Assembly: GCA_963823915.1 (NCBI GenBank) | Contig: CAWGNJ010000006.1 | Span: 82,225 to 146,224 of the forward strand | Origin: an uncultured Actinomycetota bacterium | GTDB taxonomy: Bacteria > Actinomycetota > Acidimicrobiia > Spongiisociales > UBA4744 | DNA: 64,000 nucleotides | Reading direction: 5' to 3' | In this document: positions 1,821-25,998 of the stretch, in pieces | Layout: every line of letters begins with the position of its first letter | How positions within the stretch are numbered: the first letter of the stretch is position 1 | Notes under the pieces: model-generated | The model's input: the letters and a program-made list of their open reading frames with translations, nothing else | The model's database searches: none | What the model was told of the DNA's origin: nothing | Translations under genes and position numbers: made by a program

Positions 1821-2031
1821 GGCCCAGATCACCAACCGAATCCGCCAACTGCGCTTCGAGAACGGTGAGATGACCCAGCAGGAGCTGGCGAGCCGGGTCG
1901 GCTGCACCCGTCAGACCATCATCGTCCTCGAGAAGGAACGCTACGTCCCATCACTCAGCCTGGCCTTCGCCATCGCTCGAGTGTTCGACCTCCCTATCGA
2001 AGGGGTCTTCGAGTACGGCGAAGACCAATGA
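1813..2031 (+). CDS. XRE-family helix-turn-helix transcriptional regulator (72 aa)
   Basis: QQELASRVGCTRQTIIVLEKERYVPSLSLAFAIARVF is a classic Cro/C1-type HTH. Overlaps the upstream membrane-protein gene. Confidence 0.8.
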   Translation: MPKAQITNRIRQLRFENGEMTQQELASRVGCTRQTIIVLEKERYVPSLSLAFAIARVFDLPIEGVFEYGEDQ

Positions 2032-2492
2032 CCAGGCCTGACGTGCCAGTATCCCGGATTCGATGTGGCCGAGTCCTACTACTCAGCATTCTTCTCGTGG
2101 TCGCGGCCTGTGCCGGTCCGGACGCCGCGAAATCAACCGTCCCACCTGAGCCACAGGCGTTGGCTGGCATCTGGCTCGCCGAGTTTCGTGGCGTCGTGCT
2201 TCAGTTCCGGGTCGATCAGGGGCCGGCTCAGGATCTGACTGGCGTCCTCGACAGCCCGATGGAAGGGGTTACGGATCTGCCGACCACGATCACCGCGGAT
2301 GGGGCGAACGTGATCATCGAGATCCCGGTTGCTGCTGTCGTAATCGAGGCCACGGTGGAAGCCGACTCGCTTGCGGGCATCTGGAAACACCGCGGCGCCG
2401 AGGTGCCCATTTCCTTCACCCGACAAGCAGAGCCCTTCACCACTCGTCCGAACTCAGGAGCCGCAGCCTCCCTTCCCGTACGAATCCGTTGA
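2028..2492 (+). CDS. putative lipoprotein, possibly the N-terminal domain of the downstream hydrolase
   Basis: Signal peptide with lipobox LVVAACAG. The 3' end overlaps the hydrolase ORF in another frame. Confidence 0.45.
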   Translation: MTRPDVPVSRIRCGRVLLLSILLVVAACAGPDAAKSTVPPEPQALAGIWLAEFRGVVLQFRVDQGPAQDLTGVLDSPMEGVTDLPTTITADGANVIIEIPVAAVVIEATVEADSLAGIWKHRGAEVPISFTRQAEPFTTRPNSGAAASLPVRIR

Positions 2493-3483
2493 AGTGCGGT
2501 TCAACAGCGGCCCCATCCGGTTGGGCGGCACTCTCGTGATTCCCGAGGGGGTTGGGCCGTTCCCGGTGGCGGTGTTGATCAGCGGTTCCGGGCAACAGGA
2601 TCGAGACGAGTCGATCCTGGGTCACAAACCGTTCCTGGTGCTGGCGGACTGGCTCGCCCGCCAGGGCATCGCAACCCTGCGCTACGACGATCGCGGTGTG
2701 GGCGAGTCGGGGGGCAATCCGGCAGGAGCCACCTCGGCCGACTTCGCTGACGACGCGTTGGCAGCCGTCGCCTTTCTCGCCGATGATGAGCGCTTCTCGG
2801 CCATCGGCTTGATCGGGCACAGCGAAGGGGGACTCATCGCACCCATGGTGGCGGCCCAGGCCGACGTGGCCTTCACAGTGTTGCTCGCCGGACCCGGTGT
2901 GCCCGGAGCCGAAGTGCTGGCACAGCAAATCGAGGACCTGATGCGCGCCGAGGGTGCTTCTCCCAGTGCAGTCGACTGGCGGGTCGGGTGGGGAACGGAG
3001 GTCATTGCCCTCGCCGCATCGGACATGGACTCAGCTGACGTCGCTTCTCAGATCCGTGAAGTCCTGGAGGCAGCCGCAGATGACGTCCCGCCGGGACTCG
3101 AGCAATGGGTGAGCAGCGCCGCAATCGAGGAGACGGTGGCCGCATTCACCGATCCGTGGTTGCGCTACTTCCTCGCCTACAAGCCACAGCCCGCACTCGA
3201 GGCGCTGGCTATTCCGGTGCTGGCGCTGATCGGCAATCTCGACCAGCAGGTGTCGGCGGAGCTCAACATCCCGGCGCTCGAGGCGGCTCTTGCCGGCAAC
3301 TCGGACGCCACCGTCACCGAACTCGACGGACTGAACCACTTGTTCCAAACCGCGACCACTGGTGCCGTATCCGAATACGGGCGGATCGAGGAGACGTTTG
3401 ACCCGGACCGCGATGGAGTTGGTGTCAGACTGGATCCTGGAGCGCTTCTGAGAACGGGCGAGGAGATGGCCGTCGGACTTTGA
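2371..3483 (+). CDS. alpha/beta-hydrolase fold serine hydrolase
   Basis: GHSEGG nucleophile elbow (GxSxG). PFPYESVEVRF...GTLVIPEG is an abhydrolase N-terminal pattern. The first ~30 residues of the annotated ORF look out-of-frame, so the true start is uncertain. Confidence 0.75.
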   Translation: MRASGNTAAPRCPFPSPDKQSPSPLVRTQEPQPPFPYESVEVRFNSGPIRLGGTLVIPEGVGPFPVAVLISGSGQQDRDESILGHKPFLVLADWLARQGIATLRYDDRGVGESGGNPAGATSADFADDALAAVAFLADDERFSAIGLIGHSEGGLIAPMVAAQADVAFTVLLAGPGVPGAEVLAQQIEDLMRAEGASPSAVDWRVGWGTEVIALAASDMDSADVASQIREVLEAAADDVPPGLEQWVSSAAIEETVAAFTDPWLRYFLAYKPQPALEALAIPVLALIGNLDQQVSAELNIPALEAALAGNSDATVTELDGLNHLFQTATTGAVSEYGRIEETFDPDRDGVGVRLDPGALLRTGEEMAVGL

Positions 3484-5230
3484 CGATTGGCTTGCCGACG
3501 GCGCCCTGGGTCGACCACAGGGAGGCAGGGGTGGGCATCGATACCGAACGATTGCGGAGTCTGGTGGCTGGCAGGGTCGCCAGCGGCGCGATGGTGGCCG
3601 TCCTCGTCGTGGTGGGGTTCCTCTCGACCCTGCCGCCGAAGGCGCAGGGTGCCGACGCTCCCGCGACCGAGTTCTCGGCAGCGCGGGCGATGGAGCACGT
3701 CGACGAGATCGCTCGCGAGCCGCATCCGCTGGGCTCTCCGGAGAGCGAGAGGGTCCGTGCCTACCTCGTCGCCGAACTCGAGGCGCTGGGTCTCGAGGTC
3801 GACCTGCAGACCTTCATGGCACCCGACTACTACGGAGGCGGCGCCCGGATCGAACTGGCCAATGTGATCGGCTGGATCCCGGGAACGGCCAACACCGGAG
3901 CGGTGGTGCTGGTGGCCCACTACGACACCGTCCCGACCACGCCCGGCGCCAACGACAACTCCGCCGCGGTGGCGGCGCTCCTCGAGACCGCCCGGGCGTT
4001 GCGTGCCGGGCCTCCCCTCGCCAACGACGTCGTGTTCCTCTTCACCGATGCCGAGGAACCGTCGGGACCGTCGGGCCACTTCGGAGCCAGGGCCTTCGTG
4101 AGCCTGCCGGACGTGGTCGACGGCCTGGGGTTGGTGGTCAACTTCGAGGCGAACGGCGGCTCCGGGGCGTCCACGCTGGTGGAGACCAACGGATCGTCAT
4201 CGTGGCTGATCGGTGAGTTCGCGGCGGCGGCCCCGCATCCCGTTGCCTTCTCGTTCCTGACGGAGGTCGCCGAGTGGATCGGCGAGATCGGCACGGACTT
4301 CGATGTGTTCAGCGACGCCGGTGTGCCGGGGATCCACTTCGCCTACCTGCGCGGATCGCCGATCTATCACACACCCGGCCGACGACATCGACAGCGTCGG
4401 GCAGGGCTCGCTGCAGCACCACGGCTCGAACGCGCTGGCGATCGCCCGGCACTTCGGGGACCTGGATCTGACGACGGCTCCCGATCTCGGGGCGTCGGTG
4501 TTCTTCACGATCCGCCCGCTTCTTCGTTCGGTACCCGGTCTGCGCTGACCCCGTGGCTCGCTCTGATGGCGCTCGCTGGCTTCGCCTGGGCGATGTGGGC
4601 GGGCGCCGACGGGGCGCGGCTGCGGGGTGCCGCTCGCTCGCTGGGGCGGCCGCACTGGCCGGTCTGGGCGGTGCGATCGCGGGAACCGTGCTGTGGATGC
4701 TGGTGACCGCCTCCGCTCGACGCCCGGGATCCTCGAGATCTACTTCTACCTGGCGGTGCTCGTCGGGGTCGCCATCCTGGTCGCCAGGTGGGTGGAGGAT
4801 CGGTCGGGGGCGACAGCGCCCCGGCACGGCGAAACGGGCGGATCGGGCTGTGGATGCTGCTCACGCTGGTGACGGCGTGGTGGCGCCCGGGTTCAGCTAC
4901 CTGTTCGTGTGGCCGACCCTTGCTGCGGTCGCCGGTCTCCTGTGGCATCCGGTCCACCGTCGGTGGGCCTCAGCTGCGCTTCTTCGTCATCGCCGCCCCG
5001 ACGCTGCTGCTGCTGACCCCGGCCATCGACTACCTGTTCCTCTTCGCCATCCCCGGCCCGGCAATCCCGATTCGGAGATCACGCCGGCGATGGTGGTGCC
5101 GCTGCTGCTGGGCCTGCTGGTGGTGGCGCTGTTGGCCGAACCAGATGGCCGAGCAACCAGAGTCTGCCGATCGACCTGGTGCGTATCGCTCCAGCTTGAG
5201 TATGCAACGAAACTCCGTCACGGTGCCTAG
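3480..5230 (+). pseudogene. M28-family zinc aminopeptidase with C-terminal membrane region, disrupted by multiple frameshifts
   Basis: HYDTV...GANDNSAAVAALLE...FLFTDAEE are M28 metal ligands. The frame breaks near 4380, and the conserved YHTPADDIDSV continues in ORF 4303-4548. Downstream TM-like segments are scattered over three frames up to ~5230. Confidence 0.65.
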
Positions 5231-6227
5231 GCTAGCTTCTCGCTTCTCCGGAGAAGACCTAGACTTTCTCCATCCTGGAACCATCGCGTTCTAAGATCGG
5301 TCCATGGGATCACGTACATCGAGATCCTGAGTCCCATCGCCTCGGCTGCGTTCTCCCAGGGCAGCGACTTTACGGACAGAGTCCTGGAGTCGCTCCCAAT
5401 CCTTCTTCGCCGGAGGACGATCAGGGTGGACCCGAGGGCTTGGTCCTTGCGGTTGAATTGACCCGGCCATGGGCTCATTGCGAGTAGACGTCGACGGAGG
5501 CGTCGTATTGAAGGTATACAGTTCGCCGTCATGCGCAGGTCGAACACAGCAACCCGAGCATACACGCCTGCCCTTGTCCTCGTCGACACTCTGCACACAG
5601 AGCAGGATCCGACGTTGCCGTCGCGGAACGTCACCTCTAGGACGTCGCCGACTTGGTCAGGGACAGATCAGACTTCTGCCTCTTCCAGATTCTCTTCGGA
5701 TCGCTTGTACGGCCCAGTCAACTGCTCCCGGACCTGATCCAGCGCCTACACGGCGTGACCTCGATCTTTGCCGGACGAATCGGCTCACATCGGTGCCGTC
5801 ATCGATGTGAGCCAGCTCACGAATCGCGAATGCTGTCCTCTAGACGCCCTACCTCGAATTGTGCAACAGCCAAAGCGATCCAGAAATACGAAGGATTCGT
5901 CTGGGTCTTCGACCCACACCGGCGTAGCTAGCGAGCAAGCGATCTGTCGCAAGCGCTCCGTCGAGACCTTCAGCCACGAGATCGCGGTCTTCCGAGCGAA
6001 ACATCAGCAGCAATGTCGTTCTCTGAAGACTTTGACACCCCCAAGTTCCCCATAGCCGGTGAGGCTTACCGACCCATGTGGCCACCTTCCTCGAAACCCG
6101 CTGACCGCGAGACGCCCCTGAGCATCGATTGGAGAACCTCACCCGGAGCGCTCTGGCACTCCTTCGACCCTCCCGCCCCCGATCAAATCAATATCGGGCG
6201 ATATCGCTCCGTTTCCTGACCACCCGA

Positions 6228-6400
6228 TAAACGGCACTTCGAGGTGCGGTTCAGAGTTGCCGGAACTCGCCGGACTCAATCACCTGTTCCAGAACGCTAA
6301 CGACGGGCGCCGTTTCAGAATATGGGCTCATCGAGGAGACGATGAAGCCGGTGGTTCCCAAGACGATCGACCGACTGGATACTGGAGCGCTTCTGATTCC
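6228..6400 (+). pseudogene. relic of a paralogous alpha/beta hydrolase: N-terminal FEVRF motif fused directly to the C-terminal ~50 codons (internal deletion plus frameshift)
   Basis: About 70% DNA identity with 3320-3470. ELAGLNHLFQNA...TTGAVSEYGLIEET...LDTGALL matches ELDGLNHLFQTATTGAVSEYGRIEET...LDPGALL. The upstream gaggtgcggttca matches the gaagtgcggttca of the intact gene. Confidence 0.6.
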
Positions 6401-6455
6401 GAGATGTCTCTGTTGGGTAATCCCGCGTCGGTAGGACCATTCAAGAAGTGTCTTA

Positions 6456-6980
6456 ATGCCGGCCTTCGGTCTAACTACTTACCACCGTATGTTTGTTACG
6501 GTGTCTCACCTACTCACAGTGTCAATCTGTCCTCAGGAGGAGCCGACCGTGGAGGACACCATCAGCAACCGCATCAACGCAGACCGTTGGGGAGTGCTGT
6601 CCTCACTCTGGATCTTCGTCTTGTTCAACATGCTCTTCCGTGACATCCACGAGTTCGCTCGTCCGGGCTGGATCGAAGAACTCATGTCGATGGAAGTTGC
6701 CGAAGGACTGCTGCTTGCATCCGGGATCGTGCTGAGCCTGTTCATCTCGATGATCGTGTTGAACCGAGTGTTGCCTTCCACCGCAGCCCGCTGGGCCAAC
6801 GCCGCTCTTGCCGTCGTGGCGATCGCGTCTATGGTGGCCAATCCACCGGGCGACCTCGACGACATCTGGTTCTTCGTCGTCGAGATCCTCGCCCTGCTGG
6901 CGATCATCGGTCTTGCCTGGACCTGGCGGACGGACCCAGCTGAGCGCAGCCCTGATCCGGTGGTAGCGAGCGAGACCTAG
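6456..6980 (+). CDS. hypothetical membrane protein
   Basis: Four or more hydrophobic helices. Likely GTG start near 6549, after an AGGAGG. Confidence 0.45.
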   Translation: MPAFGLTTYHRMFVTVSHLLTVSICPQEEPTVEDTISNRINADRWGVLSSLWIFVLFNMLFRDIHEFARPGWIEELMSMEVAEGLLLASGIVLSLFISMIVLNRVLPSTAARWANAALAVVAIASMVANPPGDLDDIWFFVVEILALLAIIGLAWTWRTDPAERSPDPVVASET

Positions 6981-7196
6981 CGCTCCCAGACCGGGGAGGT
7001 GGGTCCCGCTGGGCGGGCCTACGTACGAGTTGTGCCAGCTCCCGGCCTGTTCGCCTGCGCCAACGCATCGTTGCCGCATCTGTGGTGGGCGAATGCTGGA
7101 AGCCGTGGATGCTCGACGAGAACGTTGCTGCTCACCGAACACCATGCAGGAGATGAATGCGATCATTGGTCCCAAGTGGAGCCGAGGAGGGCTTGA

Positions 7197-7898
7197 GTGA
7201 ATAACGCGAGATCCGCCAAGGATCCGACGCCCTTTTCGGAGTTGAACGGCTTGTTGGCGGAGTTGATCGACTGCGTGCAGTCGATTCTCGCCGACGATCT
7301 CGTCGGCGGTTACGTCGTGGGGTCGTTCGCTCTCGGAGCCGGCGATCTCTCCAGCGACTGCGACTTCATCGTTGTGACGAAGGAGCCGGTCACCGGTGAG
7401 CAGGAACGAGCCCTCCGTCGGCTGCACGACGAGATCCCGACGCGTCCGGGGCATTGGGCGACGAATCTGGAAGGCAGCTACGCACCGCAGGCAGATCTCG
7501 GGACGCTGGAGCGGCTCGACGGGGAGTGGCTGTATGTGGATCGGGGCTGGCGGGAGATGCAATGGTCAACCCACTGCAACGTCGCAGACACCCGATGGAT
7601 ACTCCGTGAGCGCGGCGTTCCGCTGATCGGGCCCGAGCCGCGGACCTTTGCGTGTGAGGTTCCCGCAGACCTGCTGCGCGACAGGATGCGCACCCTGATC
7701 GGGAACTTCCTTGAGGATCTGCTGAGCTGGACCAGTTTCGACATGATCTGGGCGCAGCGGTACGCAGTGGAATCCATGTGCCGCATGCTGTACACCCTCG
7801 AGACCGGAGAGGTGACCTCGAAGCTGGCTGCCCTCGAATGGGGAAGGGGGGAGCTCGCGCCGGCATGGCGGAATCTCATCCGCGCAGGCGCGGGCTGA
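7197..7898 (+). CDS. nucleotidyltransferase, aminoglycoside adenylyltransferase (ANT(3'')/ANT(9), AadA-like) fold with DUF4111-like C-terminal domain
   Basis: GSFALGAGDLSSDCDFIVV is the polymerase-beta-type NTase motif. The C-terminal WAQRYAVESM...TGEVTSKLAALEWG resembles the AadA C-domain. GTG start preceded by GGAGGA. Confidence 0.6.
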   Translation: MNNARSAKDPTPFSELNGLLAELIDCVQSILADDLVGGYVVGSFALGAGDLSSDCDFIVVTKEPVTGEQERALRRLHDEIPTRPGHWATNLEGSYAPQADLGTLERLDGEWLYVDRGWREMQWSTHCNVADTRWILRERGVPLIGPEPRTFACEVPADLLRDRMRTLIGNFLEDLLSWTSFDMIWAQRYAVESMCRMLYTLETGEVTSKLAALEWGRGELAPAWRNLIRAGAG

Positions 7899-8249
7899 CC
7901 GGCCAGTCCCTTGGGATGACCCTCCACGCCCAGGAAGCGTGGAGGCCACTATCGCCTTCGTCGAATACGGCAAGGAACACGCACGCAGACTCACCGGCGC
8001 CTGACCCGGCAACACCGACCCGCAGGCAGCGTTCGGTGTGTCCGGCGAGCTCGTCGGATGGAGCACGCCGATCACCAAATACTTCGCCATAACGAGCATT
8101 GTGCCGAGTGCTCGATATCGGCACTTCGGCTCTCGGTTGGAAGGGCTTCCGCGAGACCGTTAATCACACGATAGGTACAGTTATTGGCTGCTACATGGCG
8201 GAGCCAGCCTGGCTTGACGACATCGAGATCGAGGTTGTCGAGGCGGCGC

Positions 8250-9158
8250 TCAGCTTGCCGGGTCTGGATCAAACGCCGCCCCGAGTGCGTCAATCTGGCT
8301 GCGGTGGAAGTCCTGTACAACCGGGGCGCTGACCGCCGCCTCGAAGCCGTGGTAGCCGCCCTCGACCACCTTCAGTTCACAGGGCACGCCGGCCTCCTGC
8401 AGGCGTCGGGCGTACTCGACGTCCTCGTCGTGAAACAGGTCCAGCGTGCCGACTCCGATCCACGCCGGCGGTAGGCCGGACAGGTCTTCGGCGCGGGATG
8501 GTGCAGCGTGTGGGTGCACGTCGTCACCCGTGGCACCAGCCAGGTATGAGGACCAGCCGAAGCGGTTGCAGGTCTGGTTCCACAGCTTGACCGGCATGTC
8601 GTCCAGGTCTGTTCGCTGGGCGGTGCGGTCGTCGATCATCGGGTAGATCAGCATTTGGAAGACTGGTTTGACGTCCATCTCATCTCGAGCTCGAAGAGCT
8701 AGTCCTGCTGCCAGGCCGCCACCTGCGCTCCCGCCACCGATGGCGATGCGGCTGGGGTCGACATCGGGTTGATCGGCCAACCACGCCAGTGCTGCGGCAC
8801 AGTCGTCCATCGCTGCCGGGAACGGGTGTTCGGGGGCAAGGCGGTATTCGACGAAGGCCATCGCCATATCAACGTGGGGTGTGTACCGCCTGTGGGTCAG
8901 GGAGAACTCCGAGACGGCGGTCCCGAGCACCATGCCGCCGGCGTGTATCCACAGCAGCGCCGGGGCGGGCTTGCGTCCTGACGGCGCACCGACGAAGTAG
9001 ACGTCGGCGGTTTCGCTGACCGACACCTTGCGTGCCTTTGGACGGATGAAGCGCTTCTGGAGCGCCTCCAGGGCGCGGAAGAAGGGCAACGTTCGGGGAA
9101 GCCCAAGGGATCGTGGATAGAACCGTGCCTTGGTCAGCTCGGGGTGGTAGGTCGCCAT
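8250..9158 (-). CDS. alpha/beta-hydrolase esterase/lipase (HSL/Aes-like)
   Basis: HAGG(M) oxyanion motif in LLWIHAGGMVLG, GGSAGG nucleophile elbow, and a C-terminal GGYHGF His motif. Confidence 0.8.
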   Translation of the reverse strand: MATYHPELTKARFYPRSLGLPRTLPFFRALEALQKRFIRPKARKVSVSETADVYFVGAPSGRKPAPALLWIHAGGMVLGTAVSEFSLTHRRYTPHVDMAMAFVEYRLAPEHPFPAAMDDCAAALAWLADQPDVDPSRIAIGGGSAGGGLAAGLALRARDEMDVKPVFQMLIYPMIDDRTAQRTDLDDMPVKLWNQTCNRFGWSSYLAGATGDDVHPHAAPSRAEDLSGLPPAWIGVGTLDLFHDEDVEYARRLQEAGVPCELKVVEGGYHGFEAAVSAPVVQDFHRSQIDALGAAFDPDPAS

Positions 9159-9449
9159 GGTGGGATGCTACCGGTCAGTTTTCGGCCCATGTCCGACACG
9201 AAGCCGAGTAGTCGGGGCGACCCCCGGCAAACCGACAAGCCGTCCCTTCCGGATCGAACGGATTGGCAACCATCGACCCCAACGTACACGCCATGCCTTC
9301 CACCCTCCCTTTGTCCACGCCGATCACCAGATACCGAGCGAGATCGCTCACGTCCTCGAACCGCCCAGATCGGCACATCGAGGTGCGGTTCTCGCCCGAA
9401 GCGCTCCGCCACGCAGAGTAAGGACGGTGGTCGTGCCAACCACCCGTTC

Positions 9450-10013
9450 ATGGCAAGGGACGCGAGTGTCACACTCCAGCTGGACTCGGCAGGAGCACCG
9501 CTCTGTTCAGGAGGCGTAGATTCGGGCCATGGCCGGAAGAGTCCAACCGAAGATGACCGCCTGGAAGCGCTCCGACGGTTGCTGACTGGTCTGGCGGGCG
9601 GCGCCGATGTGTTCGAACTGGCAGAGTCAGTATCTGACCTCCACCCGAAGAACAACACGTTTCCAGGTGAGGTGTTCATGCGCCTGGCCGTGGACGTGCT
9701 CGAGGTCGCCGACACCACACGAGACAACCCGATTCCCTATGAGGGCTTGCGCGAGACCTACTTGCCCGAGTGCGAGTTCCGAGGCCGCGAGAACCGCAAG
9801 ATCCAGTACACGATCCTGACCAGTGCATCGGTGCGAGGTGGGCTAGAACCAGACCTATTGGACGAGGTGATCTGGTGGCAGACCGATGACTACTGGCGGT
9901 ACGCGCTGTACGGTGCTGTGGCGCTGATCCGGGCTTGCGCAGACCGCCAAGGAATTACCGTCGCTCGGCTGGTCGAGCAACTCACCGAACTCCATGGCGT
10001 GGCACTGACCTGA
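9450..10013 (+). CDS. hypothetical protein (~187 aa); annotated ORF 9144-10013 trimmed to the first plausible ATG
   Basis: Only the C-terminal ~185 residues have protein-like composition (W/Y/F-rich: DEVIWWQTDDYWRYALYG). The upstream part of the ORF is low-complexity R/P/S. Confidence 0.4.
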   Translation: MARDASVTLQLDSAGAPLCSGGVDSGHGRKSPTEDDRLEALRRLLTGLAGGADVFELAESVSDLHPKNNTFPGEVFMRLAVDVLEVADTTRDNPIPYEGLRETYLPECEFRGRENRKIQYTILTSASVRGGLEPDLLDEVIWWQTDDYWRYALYGAVALIRACADRQGITVARLVEQLTELHGVALT

Positions 10014-10265
10014 CCGGTTCCGCTTGCGCGGATCACCTTGTCACTTGAAAGGCACGCATGCTCGAAGACGCCAGCCCCCAGCTTTGAAGCCAGACACAAG
10101 AGACATGCGGACATCCATTTCCGACCCCAGCCGGGACCACCACCGACAGTCCCATGCCAGTCACCCGACGTGCACCAAACCGGGACACGATTACCCCCAT
10201 ATCCTCACGAATGCGGGCAGCCACCGACGCACGTCCTGCGGGTGGCTCGGAGATGGGATGTGATG

Positions 10266-10605
10266 TCACACCTGCTCGACAACGGCGCCGTACCGTTGTT
10301 GGGCGGCCTGGGCTGACGTTCCAAGCAGCTCACCTATCTTGCTCCAGGAGATCCCTGCAGTCCGCGCGTGCGGTGACTGCGTCGACGATCTGCCGTTCGC
10401 TTCGGGCGCGTGTGCGACAGCGGCCCGCTGCAAGGAGGTATTCCTCGACGGGTCGTTCGTCGCCTTCGGCTGGTTCGTAGTCCTCGAATCGCTGGGCGAG
10501 TTCGTCAGCGTGATCGAGTATCTCTTGGATTGATACGGGGCATTCACGGTCACCTGAGGAATCTCGGGTCGGGCGGCGCATGGCGTGCACGATGAACCTC
10601 AACAC
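10266..10605 (-). pseudogene. small HTH antitoxin-like gene split over two frames, preceded (10600-10717) by a 5'-truncated BrnT-like toxin fragment
   Basis: Frame 1: PVSIQEILDHADELAQRFEDYEP... Frame 2: AGISWSKIGELLGTSAQAAQQRYG (HTH). The upstream minus-strand fragment reads MLHAYRNPIRVFGLDDLIMLIGADQAGNLLEVGV. Confidence 0.4.
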
Positions 10606-10995
10606 CTTCGCCGGTCTGCCACACCGACCTCAAGCAGGTTCCCTGCCTGGTCGGCGCCGATCAACATGATCAGGTCGTCGAGGCCGAACACTCGGATTGG
10701 GTTGCGATAGGCGTGCAGCATGTCGTCGTCGTTGACCCCGTGCTTGCCCGGGCGGTCGCCACGATCACAGGATCCATACCATCAACTTAGCTTGATGGTC
10801 CAGCCGTGTCTACCCCTTGCCGATGAGGCGCCGGTGGCTCCTGGAGGTGTCCGTCAGGTGTCCGTCAGACACCGCAAAACTGACCGAAGATTACGCAAAA
10901 CTATTTGCGAGCCAATCGCCCAGAAACCCCAACGAAATAGGGGCCCTTTTTACGTCAACGCGGAAAATCTGAAAGACAATGACGAAAGGCCTGAA

Positions 10996-11062
10996 TGGGT
11001 CTTCAAAACCGGTGGGGGGTCGAAAGGTCCCCGGCGGGTTCGATTCCCGTCCGCCTCCGCCA
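10996..11062 (+). tRNA. 3' partial tRNA-Sec (selC-like) lacking the 5' acceptor/D-arm: anticodon arm, long variable arm, T-arm, 8-nt acceptor strand, G73, CCA
   Basis: Anticodon loop CTTCAAA (UCA anticodon). Variable-arm hairpin GGGGGTC-GAAA-GGTCCCC. T-arm GCGGG-TTCGATT-CCCGT. Then CCGCCTCC-G-CCA, laid out in parallel with E. coli selC ...GCAGGTTCGACTCCTGTGATCTTCCGCCA. No complementary GGAGGCGG 5' strand upstream. Confidence 0.5.
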
Positions 11063-11137
11063 AAGTCTTCTGATTGCAGCTACCCCTCGCCTGGGCTGTG
11101 GTGACAAATAGGGGGCGGGAGCTACGCTCGCCTTCTG

Positions 11138-12197
11138 ATGTCGCCTCCGACCCTCGCATCCAATCAGCTCCGGGTAGCGATGCTTGCCCCGATCTCGTGG
11201 CGGGTTCCGCCGCGGCACTACGGGCCGTGGGAGCAATTTGTCTCACTGCTCACCGAGGGGCTGGTCAGCCGGGGAGTTGACGTGACCCTGTTCGCCGCGG
11301 CCGACTCGGTGACGCGGCGCGGCTCGGTCGGGAACCGCCCCGACGGGATACTCCGAAGACGCAGGGTTGGACCCGAAGGTCTGGGAGAGCTTGCACATCT
11401 CGGCCGTTTTCGAACGGGCCGAAGAATTCGATGTGATTCACAACAGCTTCGATTTCCTACCGCTCACCTACAGCGGTCTGGTCGAAACCCCGGTGGTCAC
11501 AACCATCCACGGATTCTCGTCCGAGCGGATCGTGCCTGTCTTCGAGAAATACAACGATCGTGGCTACTACGTGGCGATCAGCGACGCCGACCGGCACGAG
11601 AAGCTCGACTACGTGGCCACGATCCACCATGGCATCGACATGCAGGCGTTTGCGGTGCGTCCGGAGGTCGGCGACTACTTGTTGTTCTTCGGGAGGATCC
11701 ATCCCGACAAGGGAACTGTCGAAGCCATCGAGGTGGCCGAAAGAGCCGGCATACCGCTGACTATCGCAGGGATCATCCAGGATGATGATTACTTCGAGCG
11801 GTTGGTGAAACCCCGGGTAGATGGAGAGCAAGTCACCTACATCGGCCCGGTGGGTCCCGGCGCCCGCGGGGGACTGCTAGGCGGTGCCCGGGCACTCCTG
11901 CACCTCATCAACTTCGACGAGCCGTTCGGGTTCAGTGTGGTTGAGGCGATGGCCTGTGGGACTCCGGTGATCGCCCATCCCCGAGGATCGATGTCCGAAC
12001 TGATACGCGCCGGCGAGAACGGGTTCTTGGTGGGTTCCGTCGGGGAGGCCGTTGCAGCCGTCCACGCCTCGGCCGAAATTGATCGGCTGGCGGTGCGGAG
12101 GTCGGTCGAGCATCGTTTCGACGTCAGCCGGATGATCGATGAGTACCTCGCCGTCTATCACCGCGTTGTGGAGCACCGCCGGACGGGTCGGGTGTGA
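11138..12197 (+). CDS. GT4-family glycosyltransferase, with a frameshift near 11330
   Basis: N-terminus LRVAMLAPISWRVPPRHYGPWEQFVSLLTEGL reads in one frame. The rest reads from SEDAGLDPKVWESLH onward in another, with EPFGFSVVEAMACGTPVIA (EX7E). The break is at a CGCCCC run. Confidence 0.75.
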
Positions 12198-12200
12198 AGG

Positions 12201-13448
12201 GTGGCAGTGTCCGCTGATCCGGGCCGGCCGGTCCCAACGGAGCGTTTTCGGCTGGGCGTCAACTACTGGCCCGCTCGCACTGCCATGGGCTGGTGGACAG
12301 ACTTCGATGCCGCCGAGGTTGGCATTGACTTCCGCGTGCTTGCGGCCGCCGGCTTCGATTCGGTCAGAGTGTTCCTCACCTGGGAGGATTTTCAGCCCAC
12401 CCCGAAGAGCGTGCACACCGGAATGCTCGAACGGCTGATCACGGCGGCGGATCTGGCCGGGCGGGCGGGCTTGGCCTTGATGCCCACTCTCTTCACCGGC
12501 CACATGAGCGGAGTGAACTGGATCCCGGCCTGGGCCCTCGGTGGCTCGGATGGCGACGACCGCTTCCGGGTGATGTCAGGGGGCAAGATCACCCGAGCGG
12601 GCTTGCGGAACTGGTACGCGGATCCAGAGGTCGGGCGGGCCCAAGCGCTGCTGGCGGGAGTAGCGGCGACCGCGCTGGCCGGCCACGAGGCGGTGTGGGC
12701 GTGGGACCTTGGCAACGAAAACTCGAACTGCGTGATACCGCCGAACCGATCGTCGGCTCAGGACTGGTTGAAGCAAATGACCGCGGCGATTCGCACCGCC
12801 GACCCGGCAGTTCTCGTAACCATCGGCCTGCACATGGAGGACCTGGAAGAGGACCGGATGCTCGGTCCGGGGGAGGCCGCCGAGGAGTGCGATTTCCTAA
12901 CCATGCACGGCTACCCGATCTACGCTCGCTGGGCGGAGGGTCCCACAGATGAGCACTTGCTGCCCTTCCTAGCCCACCTGACCCGCTGGCTGGGAGGGGG
13001 TCCTGATGTTCTCTTCTCAGAGTTCGGCTTGCCGACCTGTCCGCGGGCTGGTCCGGAGGGGGAGGAAGTCTGCCGGGACAGGCCTGCGGTGCTCGTCGAA
13101 GAGCGAGCCGCAGCCGCCTACACGGAACGAGCCCTATTCGCTCTCCGCGGGGCCGGTTGCACCGGGGCCATGCTGTGGTGTTACACGGACTACGTCCCGG
13201 CCATCTGGGTCGAACCTCCTTTCGACATTGCGACCCACGAGCGTTCGTTCGGACTTTGGCGAGCCGATGGTTCACCCAAACCGTCTGTGGAGGTTGTGGA
13301 GGCGTTCACCGGAGTAGACCAAGTCGCCGGCCCTGACGGCTACTCCTGGATCGATATTGCACCGGACGACTTCTATTCCACGCCTGGTGAGCACCTCGCG
13401 TGTCTCTACCGTCGCTATCGGACGAGTGAAGTGACTAACGCTCCGTAA
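12201..13448 (+). CDS. TIM-barrel glycoside hydrolase, GH5-like (possible beta-mannanase/cellulase family)
   Basis: LGVNYWP...DSVRVFLTWEDFQP; WDLGNENS is an NEP-type catalytic acid motif. GTG start 4 nt after the GT4 stop. Confidence 0.65.
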   Translation: MAVSADPGRPVPTERFRLGVNYWPARTAMGWWTDFDAAEVGIDFRVLAAAGFDSVRVFLTWEDFQPTPKSVHTGMLERLITAADLAGRAGLALMPTLFTGHMSGVNWIPAWALGGSDGDDRFRVMSGGKITRAGLRNWYADPEVGRAQALLAGVAATALAGHEAVWAWDLGNENSNCVIPPNRSSAQDWLKQMTAAIRTADPAVLVTIGLHMEDLEEDRMLGPGEAAEECDFLTMHGYPIYARWAEGPTDEHLLPFLAHLTRWLGGGPDVLFSEFGLPTCPRAGPEGEEVCRDRPAVLVEERAAAAYTERALFALRGAGCTGAMLWCYTDYVPAIWVEPPFDIATHERSFGLWRADGSPKPSVEVVEAFTGVDQVAGPDGYSWIDIAPDDFYSTPGEHLACLYRRYRTSEVTNAP

Positions 13449-14615
13449 GCCGGGTGAGGAGATCGTCGAGTGGCACGGTGGCAATGCCGGCTCCGACGTC
13501 CGAGAACCCGTAGGGAAGAACGAGATGGTTCCCGTGAATCATGCTCCCGCACGAGTACACGACGTTGGGCACATATCCGTCGCGTTCGTCTTCGGCTGGT
13601 TCGAGCAGTGGCTCGTTCAGGTGGCCGATGAGGCGGCACGGATCCTGGATGTCGAGAAGGATGGCTCCCAACGTGTAGCGGCGCAGCGGTCCCACTGCAT
13701 GGGTGATCACCAACCACCCGGCCTCGGTCTCCAGCGGCGAACCGCAGTTGCCGAGTTGCACGAGTTCCCAAGGGCGTTCGGGTTCCTGGATCTTCTCGGT
13801 TTCGTGCCAGAAACGTACGTTGTCTGAGAGCATGAGGTAGTTGTTCTCGTTGTCCTGGCGGGCCAGGGCCGCAAAACGGCCGTCGATCTTGCGCGGGAAC
13901 AGGGCAATGCCCTTGTTGTGCGCCGCGTTTCCATTGAGGGTGGCGACACGAAAAGTCACGAAGTCCGGGGTTTCTATGAGTTGCGGGAAGGATTTGGATC
14001 CCGTCGAACGCCGTATAGGTGGCGAAATAGACCACCACCCCGTCGTCATCAGTGAAACGAACGAAGCGGGCGTCTTCCATCCCGTGGCTCTCCGTCGGGC
14101 CCGCCGGGAACATCACTCGTTCCGAGATCTCGGAATCTGTCGGGAAGGTGCTCGCGTAGTTCGAAGACGCCAGCCAGTGGATGACCTTGATGGTCTGAAA
14201 GGCGACGGCACGATCCACGCCCTGGCGATCGAGATCCCCGATAGCCGCCTCGAGCTGCTCGAAAGTGAAATGAGAAGGAAGCGGATCGAGACACATGCGA
14301 GATGATGTCATTGAACGCCCCCAACTCCTCGAGCTTGGTCGACAAGACGTGTTTGTCGTAGATAGGGGACCTGCGACGGGCGGTCATGGCGTATCGACTG
14401 GGCTCGTCCATCTTGATCTTTCCGTGGGCGTCGATCACGCCCGAGCGGAACTCGACGGACGAGACGTGTCCCTCGCCGATTGCCCGCAGACTCATGACGA
14501 ACCGTTGTTCCCCCGGATCCAGACCAACCTGATCGGGGGCCGGGACAATCGACGGATTGCTGAGGGAAGCCGCCTCAATCGAGTACTCGTGAGTGAAGTA
14601 TGCCCCGATCAGCAA
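13435..14615 (-). CDS. GH130-family glycoside phosphorylase (beta-mannoside phosphorylase-like), split over three frames
   Basis: EDARFVRFTDDDGVVVYFATYTAFDG, GIALFPRKIDGRF and VPNVVYSCGSMIHGNHLVLPYGFSD are GH130 hallmarks. One break lies in a CCCC run near 13975. Confidence 0.65.
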
Positions 14616-14987
14616 ACGTCGTTCCGGGAGAGATCGTTGGGGTCAATGTGCCCGGCCACCAACGCGAAGTTGCCCTCGAGAATGCTGCTGAGGTCTTCGT
14701 GCCGGCCTGCAAACCGGTCCTGGGCGGCTTCAGAGTGGAGGTCACCTCCTGCTCCGACATGGCCAGGATCCGCTTGATGATGAGCTGCACGCGTGACCGC
14801 CCGTCTGGAAAGACCTGCTTCCCCGGCAAGAACGGTTTGGTGATCACGCGCTGGCGGATCGGGAGTGAGCCGCACCGGGGTGCGCGTGACGGGATTGGGT
14901 TCATGTTGTGGATCGCTTGTCTCTGACTGTCGGCGCCGTTGGCTGTGCGCGGAAACGCCAGAGCAGAGCGTAGGCGACCCGCAGGGC

Positions 14988-16124
14988 TCAGGCCACGGAC
15001 CTTGCCCTCCGGCGCGCCTCGGTCCGATCAACTCCTTCTGCCTGCTGTAGCGCCGCCAGAGCGGCGAGGGTTGACTCGGCCCCCTGGTTCAGGTTGGTGT
15101 AGTCGGGACCCAGGCCATCCCCGCAACCCCCGGTATGCGGGTCGTAGAGGGTCGCTCCGGTGTCGTTGGCACCCAGGAACCACTGAGCCGCTTGGTGGAC
15201 CCGATCCCTCCACCGACGGTCGTCGGTCAGTGACCAGGCCCGGCGGCAGGCATCAGCCATGGCGGTGGCCTCGACCGGTTGCTGGTCGAAGCCCGGCCGG
15301 GGTTCGCCAGGCGCCCACCCACCGGCAGGGGTGAAGCTGAATTGACCGTCGCGCGTTTCCGTGGACACCAACCACTCGAGCAAGCGAAGGCCTGCGGCGA
15401 CGAGGCCGTCGTCGGAGAGGAACGCACCTGCCGCCAGAAGGGCTTCGGGGATGCGAGCGTTGTCGTAGGCGAGCCGATCCTCCGGCCACGGCCAGAGGGC
15501 ATCATCTCGCACATGGAGGTTGCCGACGCACCGCTCCAGAATCTGCCGGGCGGGGCGATGATCAGGCGAGAAACTCAGCACTTCGCTGGCCCCCAACACT
15601 GCGAAAGCATTCGCTCGGGGAGACGGTGAACGGAAGTCTTTTTGCTTGTCGAACATTTCCAGCCCAATTTCACGCATCCAGGAAGCCAAACCGAGGCGCG
15701 CTACCGACCCCAGTGCCCACAGCGCCCGGCCTTGGGAGTCGTCCGATCCCACCTCATCGGCCCAAGACCCGTCCGAGCTGCGCCGGTTGTGGAAGCCACC
15801 ATCCGGCAGTTGGGCGTCTTGCAGGAACGTCAGATACACCCCGGCCAGCTCGACGAGACCAGAAGACGGATCGGGCTGACGGCTCACGACGATGAGTGCC
15901 CGAGCATTGTCGTCCGTGCAATAGCCGTGCTCGAGGCGCGGGGTGGTGAAACGAGCGTGTTCCCAAAGGCCCCGACGATCGGTCATCCGTCCCAGGTGAT
16001 CGAACCGAGCCCTCGGCAAAGTACCCGTATGGATTACGCCGGTTGAAAGGTTCGACCGCACAGATTCCTCCCCTGGTACGAGACGACTAAGCCGGCCGTC
16101 AACTGACCTGGGCGAAGGCATCAA
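14988..16124 (-). CDS. (alpha/alpha)6-barrel glycoside hydrolase/epimerase-like protein
   Basis: 378-aa ORF with DDNARALIV, YDNARIPEALL and NLNQGAESTLAALAAL motifs, typical of six-hairpin glycosidase/AGE-like folds. A 4-nt overlap with the upstream GT4 indicates an operon. Confidence 0.55.
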   Translation of the reverse strand: MMPSPRSVDGRLSRLVPGEESVRSNLSTGVIHTGTLPRARFDHLGRMTDRRGLWEHARFTTPRLEHGYCTDDNARALIVVSRQPDPSSGLVELAGVYLTFLQDAQLPDGGFHNRRSSDGSWADEVGSDDSQGRALWALGSVARLGLASWMREIGLEMFDKQKDFRSPSPRANAFAVLGASEVLSFSPDHRPARQILERCVGNLHVRDDALWPWPEDRLAYDNARIPEALLAAGAFLSDDGLVAAGLRLLEWLVSTETRDGQFSFTPAGGWAPGEPRPGFDQQPVEATAMADACRRAWSLTDDRRWRDRVHQAAQWFLGANDTGATLYDPHTGGCGDGLGPDYTNLNQGAESTLAALAALQQAEGVDRTEARRRARSVA

Positions 16125-17305
16125 GGACTTCCTGGGGTCGCTTGGCGGTGGTGAGAGTTCGGGTCGTGATGTGGCGGGTTGCCAGCTTGGTCGCCAGGTG
16201 ATCGTATCGGCGGGCGATGGCAGGCCAGTACAGGGTTGATCCGATCAGATTTGCTTCCACGGCCATCCTGGCCGTCGGGCGCGGGATGGGTGAACACCCT
16301 CCGGAGGGCGGCCGTCATTGCTAGTGCATCACCATGCGGGACGACAATCCCGGCCCCGGTACCGAGGAGCTCAACGGCGTGGGGGAAGGCGGTGGCGATG
16401 ACCGGCTTGCCTGCTGCGAGAGCTTCGACCAGCACTCCTGACGTGACCTGTTCGGTGGACTCGTAGGGAAGCAATACCAGATCGGCCTGGCGGACCGCCA
16501 CGGCAAGAGCGTCGGTGTCGAGATACCGGCCGTCAAACTCGACGACATCATCCAGCCCGAGATCATGGACCCGGGCGACGAGTCCCTGGAGATAGGCATC
16601 GCCTTGGGACGCCTGGACCTTGGGATGCGTCTTGCCCAAAATGATGTAGCGGGGAAGGGGACGGAGCTCTCGAAGACCCGCGACGGCGTCGATGGCCATT
16701 TCCAAACCCTTGCCCGGCCCGATGAGGCCCCACGTGAGCACGACTGGGCGAGTTCCGCTCGCCAAGGACGGGCCACTCAGACTGACCCGCGCCCCGTGCG
16801 GGACCATGCGAACTTTGGCCGGGTCGATCCGGTAGCCGTCGACGAGTCGCCGGCGGGCTGTATCGCTCATCACGATCGTCCGCTCCGTCAGGGCGACCAC
16901 CTTCTCCAGGATCGACCGTTGGCTTGGGCTGGGTTGGCTGAGCACAGTGTGTAGCGTGACGACCGCCGGGATTGCCAAGCCTGCCAGCAGGTCGAGAACC
17001 TCGCTGCCGTCGGGTCCGCCGTAGATCCCATACTCGTGCTGGACGAACACCGCGTCGAAGGAATTGAGAGCTTCGATCGCCCCCACCAGGGAAGCGCGGT
17101 CGCCGTTGAGATGTTCGTGTACGACTTCCTGTTTGAGCTCGCCGCGCTGGCCGTCCGCCAAGCTCACCACGCCCAGGCCCTCGTCGGAGCCCCGCCCTTC
17201 GGCGACGGCCCCGCGCAAAGCGGCCGCGAACGTCGCCAACCCACACGAAGTCGGCGGGTAGGTACTCAAGAATGCGATCGATGGTCGCTCGCTGTTATGC
17301 CTCAT
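16121..17305 (-). CDS. GT4-family glycosyltransferase
   Basis: N-terminus STYPPTSCGLATFAAAL. C-terminal E-x7-E region TSGVLVEALAAGKPVIATAFPHAVEL. Confidence 0.8.
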   Translation of the reverse strand: MRHNSERPSIAFLSTYPPTSCGLATFAAALRGAVAEGRGSDEGLGVVSLADGQRGELKQEVVHEHLNGDRASLVGAIEALNSFDAVFVQHEYGIYGGPDGSEVLDLLAGLAIPAVVTLHTVLSQPSPSQRSILEKVVALTERTIVMSDTARRRLVDGYRIDPAKVRMVPHGARVSLSGPSLASGTRPVVLTWGLIGPGKGLEMAIDAVAGLRELRPLPRYIILGKTHPKVQASQGDAYLQGLVARVHDLGLDDVVEFDGRYLDTDALAVAVRQADLVLLPYESTEQVTSGVLVEALAAGKPVIATAFPHAVELLGTGAGIVVPHGDALAMTAALRRVFTHPAPDGQDGRGSKSDRINPVLACHRPPIRSPGDQAGNPPHHDPNSHHRQATPGSP

Positions 17306-17604
17306 GAAATGCTCATCCTCTCAAACGGTCGCCAGTGGCGCCGGTTGATTGATGCGACAGCGATTGTCGATGCGGGCGGAGAGGATCAACTCTGGGAGGT
17401 CCGCGGGGCGATGACAAGCTGAGGCTGGGGCCGCCTTGAATACCCAAGTATACTCGGAGCCCGGGTCTATCGATACTCAAGATGGACATCTTCAGCGCTT
17501 TGGGCGATCGCCGCTCGCGCTCTCCGCCCGACCTTTGCAGTACTCCTCCTTCTCAAACGGACCAGGGTGTGTTGTGATGCAAGAAGAGGTCGGCGGAGAC
17601 AGTC

Positions 17605-18072
17605 GTGAGGTTCTTCATCCCATATCTGCGAGACGCCCCTAAAGCCGCGGAGGCCGAATGGCAGGAGTACCTGCGAGAGGTGTCCGCACCAGCCGACAGC
17701 AAGCGGGCGTACTCCGTCGTGTACCACCACGAAAGCTCCAAGGTCATCGCCACCGTTGGCGAACGACGACTCGTCTACGCCTCCGAGCCCGGACCTCGAG
17801 GCGAGTACACACAAACCGCCGACCCCGAACCGGTCGAAAGACGAACGGGGCCGGAGATCTCCGCGATCATCGACACCGGACACGACCTCATTTACCTCAT
17901 CTACGTTTGGTTCTACGGGGCACCTTTCGGCGAGTGGGCCAATCCAAGCCTCATCGGGAGATCCGAGGTCGAGGACATCGAGTACTTCGAGAACGCCCAA
18001 TTGGCGGCCCCGCATTTCCGTCTGGATCTGCACGCGTGTCCGACCACGACCCAAATGGCCTCGAGGCTATGA
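17605..18072 (+). CDS. hypothetical protein
   Basis: ORF with balanced aromatic-rich composition and a GTG start. No recognisable motif. Confidence 0.4.
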   Translation: MRFFIPYLRDAPKAAEAEWQEYLREVSAPADSKRAYSVVYHHESSKVIATVGERRLVYASEPGPRGEYTQTADPEPVERRTGPEISAIIDTGHDLIYLIYVWFYGAPFGEWANPSLIGRSEVEDIEYFENAQLAAPHFRLDLHACPTTTQMASRL

Positions 18073-18256
18073 GAGACGGTTAGCGGTCTTTTGAATGCAT
18101 CCCTGCGGTTTGCGCATCAAGAAGAAGCCCAGACGTGCCGTTTGCCTACTGGACTATCCGGTCTGGCTCAATTCGAGATACGTCTGATGGGTGGTCTGGG
18201 GAAGGCAGTCCGGTCGCCCAGTCGGGTCGATCAGATTGCGGCAGCCCCGTCCCACC

Positions 18257-18844
18257 TCAGGCTGGTTTGTCGAGGATGGTCATGAACTGCAGGCCTAGGG
18301 CCGGGGCGAGCTTGCTTCCGCGGTGCGTCAGTAGCGACTCCGCCACTAGCTCCTTGACGCGCCGTGGCGTCAGCCGGTGGACGTGTACCCGACCGGCCAT
18401 GAAGGGATTCTTGTGCAGCCTGATGGCCGCTCCCATGGCTTGCATCCCGCGGAAGAGTTCCCAGGGGTAGACGATGATCGCCAAGCCTCCCGGCTTGAGC
18501 ACCCGGGAGATCTCGGCGACAAAGGCCCGGACGTCGGCCACATGTTCGATGGTGTGGAGCGAAAAGACTTTGTCGAAGGTGGCATCGGCGAAGCGAAGGT
18601 TGGTGACGTCGCCCAATTCGACGTTCTCGGTGACGGCCGTCGCCACGGAGTCCGCGCTGATATCGACACCGACGACATGGCTCGTGTGTGCCTCCAAAGC
18701 CTTGAGGTAGAAGCCCCGTGAGCATCCGACATCCAGGATCCGGTCCTCGGGTGACGGCTCCAGATGTTGGACGAGCACCCTGAAAAGGGAGGCATTGAAG
18801 TTGAACGACATCCGATACCCTTCTTCGGTCGTTCGTCTAGACAT
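18257..18844 (-). CDS. class I SAM-dependent methyltransferase
   Basis: Motif I ILDVGCSRG; post-I acidic D in VGVD; LKPGG motif. Confidence 0.8.
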   Translation of the reverse strand: MSRRTTEEGYRMSFNFNASLFRVLVQHLEPSPEDRILDVGCSRGFYLKALEAHTSHVVGVDISADSVATAVTENVELGDVTNLRFADATFDKVFSLHTIEHVADVRAFVAEISRVLKPGGLAIIVYPWELFRGMQAMGAAIRLHKNPFMAGRVHVHRLTPRRVKELVAESLLTHRGSKLAPALGLQFMTILDKPA

Positions 18845-18963
18845 GGGATCTCATCTGTGGCGGCTCGAGCTGAAGGCAGCGTACCTTCGGTCCACCGCAG
18901 GTTGAGAGCCCGTGCCGCGGTAACCTGAGCGTCGCACGGCAACGCGCAACCAGGGAACCCGGG

Positions 18964-19782
18964 ATGAATTCAGATACATCATTCGCCGAATTGGTCAAAG
19001 GTCGCCGCACCGAGCTCGGCCTGAGCCAGGCCTCGTTGGCGGAGCTGGTCGGCCGCTCCTCCTCGGCGATCCGCAGCTGGGAGAGGGGCGCGTCGACACC
19101 CACGGACGAGAACGTTGTGCGTTCGCTGGCTGCGGTGCTGGGTATTGACGAAGTCACCCTCCGCAGCGCCGTAGGTCTACCTCCTGAAGCTCCGATCGAA
19201 GCGCCTGAGGAGGTCGGAGGCAGTGCCCTGGAGGCATTCGAAGAAGAAACTGTCGGCGGGGACAAAGAGGAAGAAGAAGCTGTAGAACCGGAAACTGCTG
19301 GTGGGGACGAAGTCTCGTCGGAAGAGGACGAGGAAGCTTCGGTGTTCGAAGAAACCACGCCGGGACCCGCCGAAGATGAAGAGGCCGTGACGCTCGACGA
19401 AGCGGTACCTCAGGCCGGAGATGACGCAGAAGTGGACGCGGGAGCACAGGCCACCGAAGTCGACGAGGTGGAGGAGGCGCCGGAAACGGACGCGATCCTC
19501 ATCTCTCCTCCTCTCGAAGTACCGACTCCGACCATGGAGCCGATGATGCCGGCCGCGGCCTCGCAGGCTTCACCGACTGCGACGATTCCCGTTGCTGCCC
19601 CGCCGACTCAACCCATTCGGCCCTCATATCTCGATGATCCCGATCAGATGATGACCTACTGGATCCGGGCGGCTATGACGGTGGCCTTCGCGGTGTTCCT
19701 CCTCATCGTCTTTTTCTGGGCGCTCGGCAGATTGGGCGACGCGATCGGTGAGGTTTGGGAGATCTTCAAAGCCGGCGCCTAG
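18964..19782 (+). CDS. XRE-type HTH protein with long acidic low-complexity linker and C-terminal transmembrane anchor (RodZ-like architecture)
   Basis: N-terminal LSQASLAELVGRSSSAIRSWERG is an HTH. About 100 residues of E/D/A/P-rich linker follow. C-terminal TM AAMTVAFAVFLLIVFFWALG. Confidence 0.7.
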   Translation: MNSDTSFAELVKGRRTELGLSQASLAELVGRSSSAIRSWERGASTPTDENVVRSLAAVLGIDEVTLRSAVGLPPEAPIEAPEEVGGSALEAFEEETVGGDKEEEEAVEPETAGGDEVSSEEDEEASVFEETTPGPAEDEEAVTLDEAVPQAGDDAEVDAGAQATEVDEVEEAPETDAILISPPLEVPTPTMEPMMPAAASQASPTATIPVAAPPTQPIRPSYLDDPDQMMTYWIRAAMTVAFAVFLLIVFFWALGRLGDAIGEVWEIFKAGA

Positions 19783-20057
19783 CCGGGTCTGCCGCGCTCG
19801 CGAGACAAATCTCTTGATATCAGAACGCGGAAAGTGATATAACACCACTATCAGTGGCGGCGGGGGGCAGTCCGAAGAAAGGACTGGCCGTGGAAGATCG
19901 GGAACTGTGGGATCCGGTCATGCTCGAGGAATACCTCGCCGGCATCGAATTGGGTGTCGACGGAGACCAGGTGCTCGAGCTTCGTCGCCGAGTGCTCGGT
20001 CGTACGCTGCCGATGTTGATCCCCGGAGATGACCACCATCTGGACTAGAGGTGAGTC

Positions 20058-21636: not shown

Positions 21637-21697
21637 CCAGCTGCGAGCTGCGAGCTGCCTGCTAGGAGCCAAGAACCAGTGACCGATGACTGCCCTT

Positions 21698-22150: not shown

Positions 22151-22206
22151 AAAACAAGCCAACGCCGTGGGTTCTCCGTCGGCCCCAAACCGCGAGAGAC
22201 CACTCT

Positions 22207-24357: not shown

Positions 24358-24370
24358 GATAGCCACGAGG

Positions 24371-24545: not shown

Positions 24546-24548
24546 CCC

Positions 24549-25973: not shown

Positions 25974-25998
25974 CGAGCTGCGAGCTACGAGCTGCGAG

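Follow-up and report, generated by a model that had tools for sequence, protein, structure and literature searches.

A probable integration scar at selC in an uncultured Acidimicrobiia bacterium

Introduction

How did the 3′ part of a tRNA-Sec gene (selC) come to stand, without its 5′ half, in a 64-kb stretch of DNA (hereafter the window) from an uncultured Acidimicrobiia bacterium? In tDNA islands, the island restores the tRNA gene and a displaced fragment marks the far end, which is the standard signature of such islands (PMC4383910; PMC9897764). An earlier note, made from the letters of the window, had taken this fragment for an attR remnant at the right-hand edge of an island-like region. 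We asked whether an integrating element, decay of a resident gene or a fault of assembly best accounts for the fragment, and how much of the neighbouring DNA belongs with it.

Results

The fragment is the 3′ part of selC

The earlier note had placed the 3′ hallmarks of tRNA-Sec at 10996–11062 and reported the 5′ acceptor strand as missing. Reading the letters of this stretch (TG GGTCTTCAAAACCGG TGGGGGGTCGAAAGGTCCCCGG CGGGTTCGATTCCCG T CCGCCTCC G CCA) directly recovers these hallmarks: an anticodon loop CTTCAAA with a UCA anticodon, a long variable arm of 21 nt, a T arm with a CGGG/CCCG stem and a TTCGATT loop, and a 3′ end composed of the 8-nt acceptor 3′ strand CCGCCTCC, the discriminator G (G73) and CCA. 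Intact tRNA-Sec genes of 95 nt are present in assemblies of related Acidimicrobiia (L004–L020) and in metagenome loci, and their final 65 nt, which run from the anticodon stem to CCA, are identical to positions 10998–11062 at all 65 nucleotides. Because this identity begins at 10998 (GGTC...), the tRNA-derived stretch starts there, two bases inside the start given in the note; the end at 11062 stands. The missing 5′ half (GGAGGCGACCGAGCGCCTGGTGGGCTCCCC) is absent from the whole 64-kb window even when up to three mismatches are allowed, which agrees with the note and extends its claim beyond the acceptor strand.

In covariance-model scoring, which the note had suggested as a check, the Rfam tRNA-Sec model (RF01852) matched the site with 38.9 bits, under its gathering score of 47, with an E value of 5.3e-6 in a 1-kb search and 3.4e-4 in a whole-window search. 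The match covers the 3′ two-thirds of the model: the anticodon, variable and T arms give a good alignment, with no counterpart for the D arm or the acceptor 5′ strand. With permissive Rfam thresholds it was the sole tRNA-like match in the window; no Rfam family reached its gathering score there, and ARAGORN called no tRNA genes over the 64 kb. Chance is excluded as the source of the fragment, as a 26-mer taken from it matched none of 100 shuffles with up to three mismatches allowed. Measured against a functional tRNA-Sec, the fragment has no complete cloverleaf, no paired 8-bp acceptor stem and no D arm, and it scores below the gathering threshold. Neither of the two ORFs overlapping it belongs to a Pfam family, and it reaches the 3′ end of the gene, as the end fragments of Islander islands do. 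Searches of the window for a second copy of the selC 3′ end and for a tRNA-Ala fragment found neither, and matches to GGAGGCGG were at chance level in number.

The fragment and its arm recur in front of different DNA

Searching one genome per species for an exact 48-nt match returned 17 loci, all in Acidimicrobiia or Actinomycetota MAGs, and a metagenome scan added 39 further loci. Most of the 17 carry an intact 95-nt tRNA-SeC(tca) called by ARAGORN, and the intact genes score 75.8–79.9 bits with the Rfam tRNA-Sec model (15 copies; most 76.9). Over all loci, with L054 and the contig-edge copy of L005 reclassified, we counted 46 full-length selC copies, 27 partial copies and 1 copy cut by a contig end.

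Fifteen of the partial copies, including those in the window and in L001 (a contig of the same species), begin at the same base, with the junction ...GAAAGGCC(T/C)GAAT(G/C)|GGTCTTCAAAACC, and among these 15 the sequence after the CCA varies. The fragment together with approximately 150 nt of upstream arm is found in 14 other contigs, and the downstream flanks differ. The remaining partial copies begin at core positions 7 (n = 5), 16–20 (n = 2) or 34 (n = 2), and three more begin at core position 1 with a different arm. These differing starts and arms indicate that several element families use this selC, with at least four distinct fragment boundaries, at core positions 1, 7, 16–20 and 34.

Tandem arrays with several selC fragments occur in L016, L017, L035 and L047. 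Two to three partial copies were observed downstream of the intact gene at L014 5154–5460, L016 5785–7315, L017 1124–4334 and L047 4988–11098, with differing 5′ boundaries and spacings from approximately 110 nt to 4.8 kb. Such arrays indicate repeated integration and decay at the locus; the repeats of approximately 110 nt at the L014 contig end could be an assembly effect.

Relatives hold complete units with an integrase

Five contigs have an intact selC in the same orientation as the fragment and upstream of it, at a distance of 4.3 kb (CAVPPF010000003.1), 4.5 kb (L005 and L045), 4.8 kb (L047) or 6.7 kb (L038), and the order is always intact selC, tyrosine integrase gene or remnant, cargo, fragment. 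Together with the recurring arm and fragment and the differing downstream flanks, these complete units uphold the attR-type reading proposed in the earlier note. The integrase gene, encoded on the opposite strand, begins 48 nt past the intact selC. L007 has an intact copy (Phage_integrase, PF00589, E = 4.9e-22, plus an N-terminal SAM-like domain) and L006 a frameshifted one, and remnants of the gene are left in L005, L009, L011, L012, L038, L045 and L047. Most of the related elements have decayed integrases, and they are small (4–7 kb); no replication or conjugation genes were seen in them, and they resemble small, decaying islets more than elements able to transmit themselves. Viral contigs searched with the core gave no match and no free attP form.

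Both arms of these elements carry the same repeat. Across the 11 class-A arms that we aligned, conservation begins at a GTGTCCGTCAG GTGTCCGTCAG repeat and runs to the core; two of the 11 are unrelated upstream of the repeat, yet keep the repeat itself. In the 558 kb of selC loci, approximately one occurrence of the 10-nt repeat core TGTCCGTCAG would be expected and 62 were counted; within the window it is confined to the repeat listed in Table 1. Tandem arrays of two to three copies of GTGTCCGTCAG are placed on both sides: 85–120 nt past intact selC, where they fall within the 3′ end of the integrase gene, and 130–150 nt upstream of the fragment core. Judged by their sequence and placement, the repeats are probably arm-type sites that the integrase would bind. 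Repeats in both arms, set away from an anticodon stem-loop core, would provide the layout that a lambda-type integrase with arm-type and core-type sites needs, and the crossover would lie in the anticodon stem-loop.

Table 1 Features of the window around the selC fragment
Feature	Position	Strand	Evidence or remarks
Partial IS110-family element, running off the window edge	1–1056	−	Transposase N-terminus from ~759; non-coding 5′ end to ~1056
Four-gene cargo block	1057–5286	+	90.6% identical over 4.2 kb to L021 9785–14002
Membrane protein, cargo block	1257–1820	+	
Small HTH regulator, cargo block	~1811–2029	+	
S33-type alpha/beta hydrolase, cargo block	~2028–3483	+	Frameshifted in this assembly
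M28 peptidase, cargo block	~3480–5230	+	Frameshifted in this assembly
Variable cargo and relics, lower-GC stretch	5287–8186		Pfam matches, GC profile
Hydrolase C-terminal relic	~6263–6340		78-nt match to L021 hydrolase 3′ end
DUF6326 gene	6456–6980	+	Pfam
ANT-like nucleotidyltransferase	7197–7898	+	Pfam
Esterase/lipase gene (ORF 8250–9158), apparent single-gene cargo module	8187–9205	−	Pfam Abhydrolase_3, E = 4e-56
Conserved right-arm module	9364–10846		94–95% identical to L015, L035 and L038; shared left breakpoint ~9355–9364
Gene of unknown function, right-arm module	~9534–10013	+	Without Pfam or NCBIfam family
Toxin-antitoxin-like pair, right-arm module	~10266–10777	−	Frameshifted in this assembly
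Candidate arm-type integrase sites, 2 tandem copies of GTGTCCGTCAG	10847–10868	+	Invariant in 11/11 aligned class-A arms
Putative attP-derived arm adjoining the core, ~150 nt	10847–10997	+	Common to all class-A elements; alignment of 11 arms
Probable displaced 3′ fragment of selC (attR core)	10998–11062	+	Anticodon-stem GGT, anticodon loop, variable arm, T arm, acceptor 3′ strand, G73, CCA
Short selC-trailer-like stretch, glycan gene cluster and 158-aa ORF	11063–18256		Same order in L001, genes intact
Glycan gene cluster (GT4, GH5, GH130, unknown, GT4)	11110–17453		79–82% identical to L002 and L003, in other contexts there
Genes flanking selC in relatives	18257–28027		Methyltransferase, XRE-type HTH_31 regulator, TauE exporter, ADI-like, Cys/Met PLP enzyme, PALP enzyme, DUF255 thioredoxin-like

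The DNA to the left is a mosaic

On its sequence, the region to the left of the scar is a mosaic of mobile DNA and cargo. The IS110 transposase that the earlier note had placed here matches Pfam DEDD_Tnp_IS110 (PF01548) through its DEDD N-terminal domain (E = 4.9e-19, six-frame translation), and the ANT-like nucleotidyltransferase and the hydrolase relic that it had listed were likewise recovered (Table 1). Homology to L021, which is free of the IS element, starts at 1057. As a separate observation, the non-coding 5′ end of the IS110 element (896–1073) is 86.5% identical to 240–415 of the metagenome contig L032, approximately 490 nt downstream of an intact selC, and the 17 nt at 1057–1073, CTCCCTGCCGGATATCG, are common to the window, L032 and the IS-free L021. 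This stretch allows three readings, as the end of the IS, its target or a solo relic.

L021 belongs to another MAG, and in its island the counterpart of the cargo block at 1057–5286 is flanked on one side by a tRNA-Ala gene with a tyrosine integrase of 477 aa and on the other by a toxin-antitoxin-like pair homologous to that of the window. L021 also has a perfect 295-nt tandem duplication (8876–9472) between the tRNA-Ala-associated integrase and the cargo block.

The right-arm genes have intact versions of 161, 93 and 73 aa in CAVPPF010000003.1, L005 and L038. Compared against Pfam and NCBIfam, neither the pair nor the 161-aa protein falls into a family, and 'toxin-antitoxin' is therefore a label taken from gene layout. 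The earlier note had described a decayed pair; a pair of this layout is there, frameshifted in this assembly. A search for closer copies of the left-hand genes found best matches of 94–95% identity.

L061 (9981–10906) and L062 (6878–7891) share the esterase gene alone, at 89% nucleotide identity, and because its neighbours there are unrelated, it does not help to place the left boundary. It has tight boundaries in three unrelated neighbourhoods, and a 95% identical protein occurs on 123 contigs, all short; the esterase gene behaves like a single-gene mobile module.

Base composition was considered as an island signal and rejected: the GC content of 1–11 kb is approximately 0.635 compared to approximately 0.615 for the rest of the window, which does not set the region apart. 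A lower-GC stretch, such as the earlier note had reported at 5.2–6.5 kb, lies within 5287–8186.

No intact cognate tDNA lies upstream of the fragment within the 64-kb window. A Pfam search of the minus-strand frames of 1–9900 and of the main plus-strand ORFs found no Phage_integrase domain, and tblastn with the L007 integrase gave no match in the window. The stretch 1–9363 may belong to the same, unusually large, mosaic element as the right arm. Homology to the 4.3–6.7-kb elements is limited to 9364–10997, and at least 11 kb to the left of the scar are without attL, so 1–9363 could instead be a different element, or DNA joined by rearrangement.

The DNA to the right is the selC locus of relatives

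Downstream, 18257–28027 is homologous at the nucleotide level to the selC flanks of L013, L014, L016, L018, L019, L045 and L047 and of many metagenome loci (Pfam assignments for these genes were taken from L019, L013 and L001). With the selC-flanking genes of relatives at 18.2–28 kb, the scar sits at the native selC locus. Comparison between genomes places element DNA upstream of the fragment and host DNA downstream, the arrangement expected of Islander islands.

The 6.3-kb glycan cluster has counterparts at L002 8918–15258 and L003 8907–15249; its GH5 protein is mannanase-like, assigns the window to uncultured Acidimicrobiia and has a 100% identical entry on a 186.5-kb contig, with a member of its protein cluster on L001. 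In L003 the cluster follows directly after tRNA-Gln and tRNA-Glu genes, and in the window it follows directly after the selC scar, parting the scar from the usual selC neighbours. It may be a module that was inserted at an earlier time; the window has no additional selC fragment to mark it.

Further to the right, 44608–50401 holds three tandem paralogous genes (473, 599 and 643 aa), which account for the GC-skew spikes at 45–50 kb. Their C-terminal ~400 aa are nearly identical and, judged by eye, look like a parallel beta-helix, and their Thr/Pro-rich linkers carry 27–36-nt repeats.

Alternative explanations

Two accounts dispense with a mobile element. A resident selC might have lost its 5′ half by deletion or mutation in place, for example after selenocysteine use was abandoned; the window does lack an intact selC, and in the Rfam alignment some bases upstream of the fragment are forced into a weak pairing with the acceptor stem. 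However, the arm does not resemble the tRNA 5′ half beyond chance: for the 45 nt upstream of the core, 2740 of 5000 shuffles score equal or better. The upstream flank was therefore rejected as a degenerate tRNA 5′ half, and the fragment is not a decayed full-length gene. Moreover, the arm is conserved in 14 other contigs, several of them with an intact selC a few kilobases upstream, and the breakpoint falls at the identical base in all of them, leaving decay in place a very improbable account. We give slightly less credence still to an assembly artefact, in which a chimeric join or collapsed repeat in an error-prone long-read assembly would have truncated the tRNA. Such an account could draw on the approximately 2 indels per kb that separate the window from the same-species contig L001, and on the break of that contig at window position 10632, but L001, a JGI contig assembled independently, carries the identical truncated copy with the same junction, 366 shared nt upstream and matching genes downstream, and the same junction recurs in contigs from many other samples. 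The truncation is thus real.

The comparison with L001 bears on the frameshifts as well. Over 11.2 kb, the two sequences differ by 62 substitutions and 24 indels, and few of the indels in the compared stretch (10632–23715) are in homopolymers. The window has frameshifts to the left and to the right of the scar, and the right-hand genes of L001 are intact; we therefore read the frameshifts as probable assembly errors and set aside the earlier view that the multiply frameshifted genes reflect island decay.

A further account accepts the integration scar and disputes what remains of the element. Here the integrase end and the rebuilt selC would have been lost or moved through deletion, inversion, IS110-mediated rearrangement or recombination between tandem elements, leaving the fragment as a fossil (an orphan attR) and 1–9363 as unrelated accreted DNA. 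The complete relatives span 4.3–6.7 kb and no attL is found within 11 kb here; homology to them ends at 9364; an IS110 element sits at the window edge; and integrases have already decayed in most related elements, all of which fit such a loss. Against it, the core is still identical at 65 of 65 positions and both arm repeats are intact. The block at 1057–5286 and the toxin-antitoxin-like pair also co-occur in one L021 island, which suggests a single larger element here too. We regard this account as a serious competitor, somewhat short of an even chance.

Discussion

The best explanation for the fragment, to which we assign a probability of about 0.9, is that it originally formed the 3′ end of the host's selC and was displaced by a tyrosine-integrase element and left as an attR-type scar in this uncultured Acidimicrobiia bacterium. 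The fragment is identical to selC, the arm on one side is conserved whereas the DNA downstream varies, relatives contain complete units, and the repeat is present in both arms. The proposed sequence of events is that an element with a tyrosine integrase would recombine with selC in or beside the anticodon loop. Its attP would carry its own copy of the selC 3′ part, and integration would for that reason rebuild a complete selC at the integrase end (attL), with the old 3′ part left joined to the other arm of the element (attR), corresponding to 10847–11062 of the window. The rebuilt selC and the integrase would then lie beyond the window start. Given the short distance between selC copies in relatives (4.3–6.7 kb) and the IS110 element at the window edge, we put the odds that attL is still upstream, rather than that the attR is orphaned, at roughly even.

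This arrangement closely resembles the tDNA islands catalogued by Islander, in particular the class with an anticodon-centred attP (the 'A' subsite; Hudson, Lau and Williams 2015, PMC4383910). Shared features are a tyrosine integrase beside the rebuilt tRNA gene (in the relatives), a displaced 3′ tDNA fragment in the same orientation at the far end, a block of identity from the anticodon stem-loop to the 3′ end, and tandem arrays with several fragments (L016, L017, L035 and L047). The window differs in containing the fragment end alone, with the integrase and intact tDNA found in relatives only, and most of the related elements differ in being 4–7 kb with decayed integrases.

In Enterobacteria, selC receives the LEE and other pathogenicity islands and the retronphage phiR73 (PMC7545054; PMC3408504). 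The target, the tyrosine integrase and the role of selC as a recurrent hot spot for different elements are common to both settings. Here, however, the host is an uncultured Acidimicrobiia bacterium, the cargo (hydrolases, a peptidase, a nucleotidyltransferase and a toxin-antitoxin-like pair) is without virulence function, and selC shows at least four fragment boundaries. The fragment also resembles the partial tRNA genes that are mis-annotated in databases (PMC9897764), being a partial copy that arises from mobile-element integration and delimits an island. Unlike those, it is called a tRNA by neither ARAGORN nor the Rfam gathering threshold, and so poses no annotation risk.

A more far-reaching proposal, which we regard as speculative and rather unlikely in full, is that selC in this Acidimicrobiia lineage is a hot spot for multiple families (at least four groups with different crossover positions), and that the window's element of at least 11 kb is a still-mobile mosaic whose cargo and toxin-antitoxin-like module have been exchanged between modules of different tRNA specificity, selC here and tRNA-Ala in L021. 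As part of this proposal, the element may also be a preferred landing site for an IS110 element.

For annotation, the frameshifts around the scar call for caution, as they probably reflect assembly quality rather than gene decay, and apparent pseudogenes across the window should not be read as decay without read-level checks. The scar leaves the known workings of tRNA-targeting islands unchanged and is an ordinary, well-understood kind of feature in a little-studied lineage. What it provides is a base-precise right boundary (11062/11063) of mobile DNA in an uncultured Acidimicrobiia genome, and a family of selC-targeting elements recognisable by the 65-nt core together with the GTGTCCGTCAG arm repeats, a signature that can be used to map islands in other MAGs.
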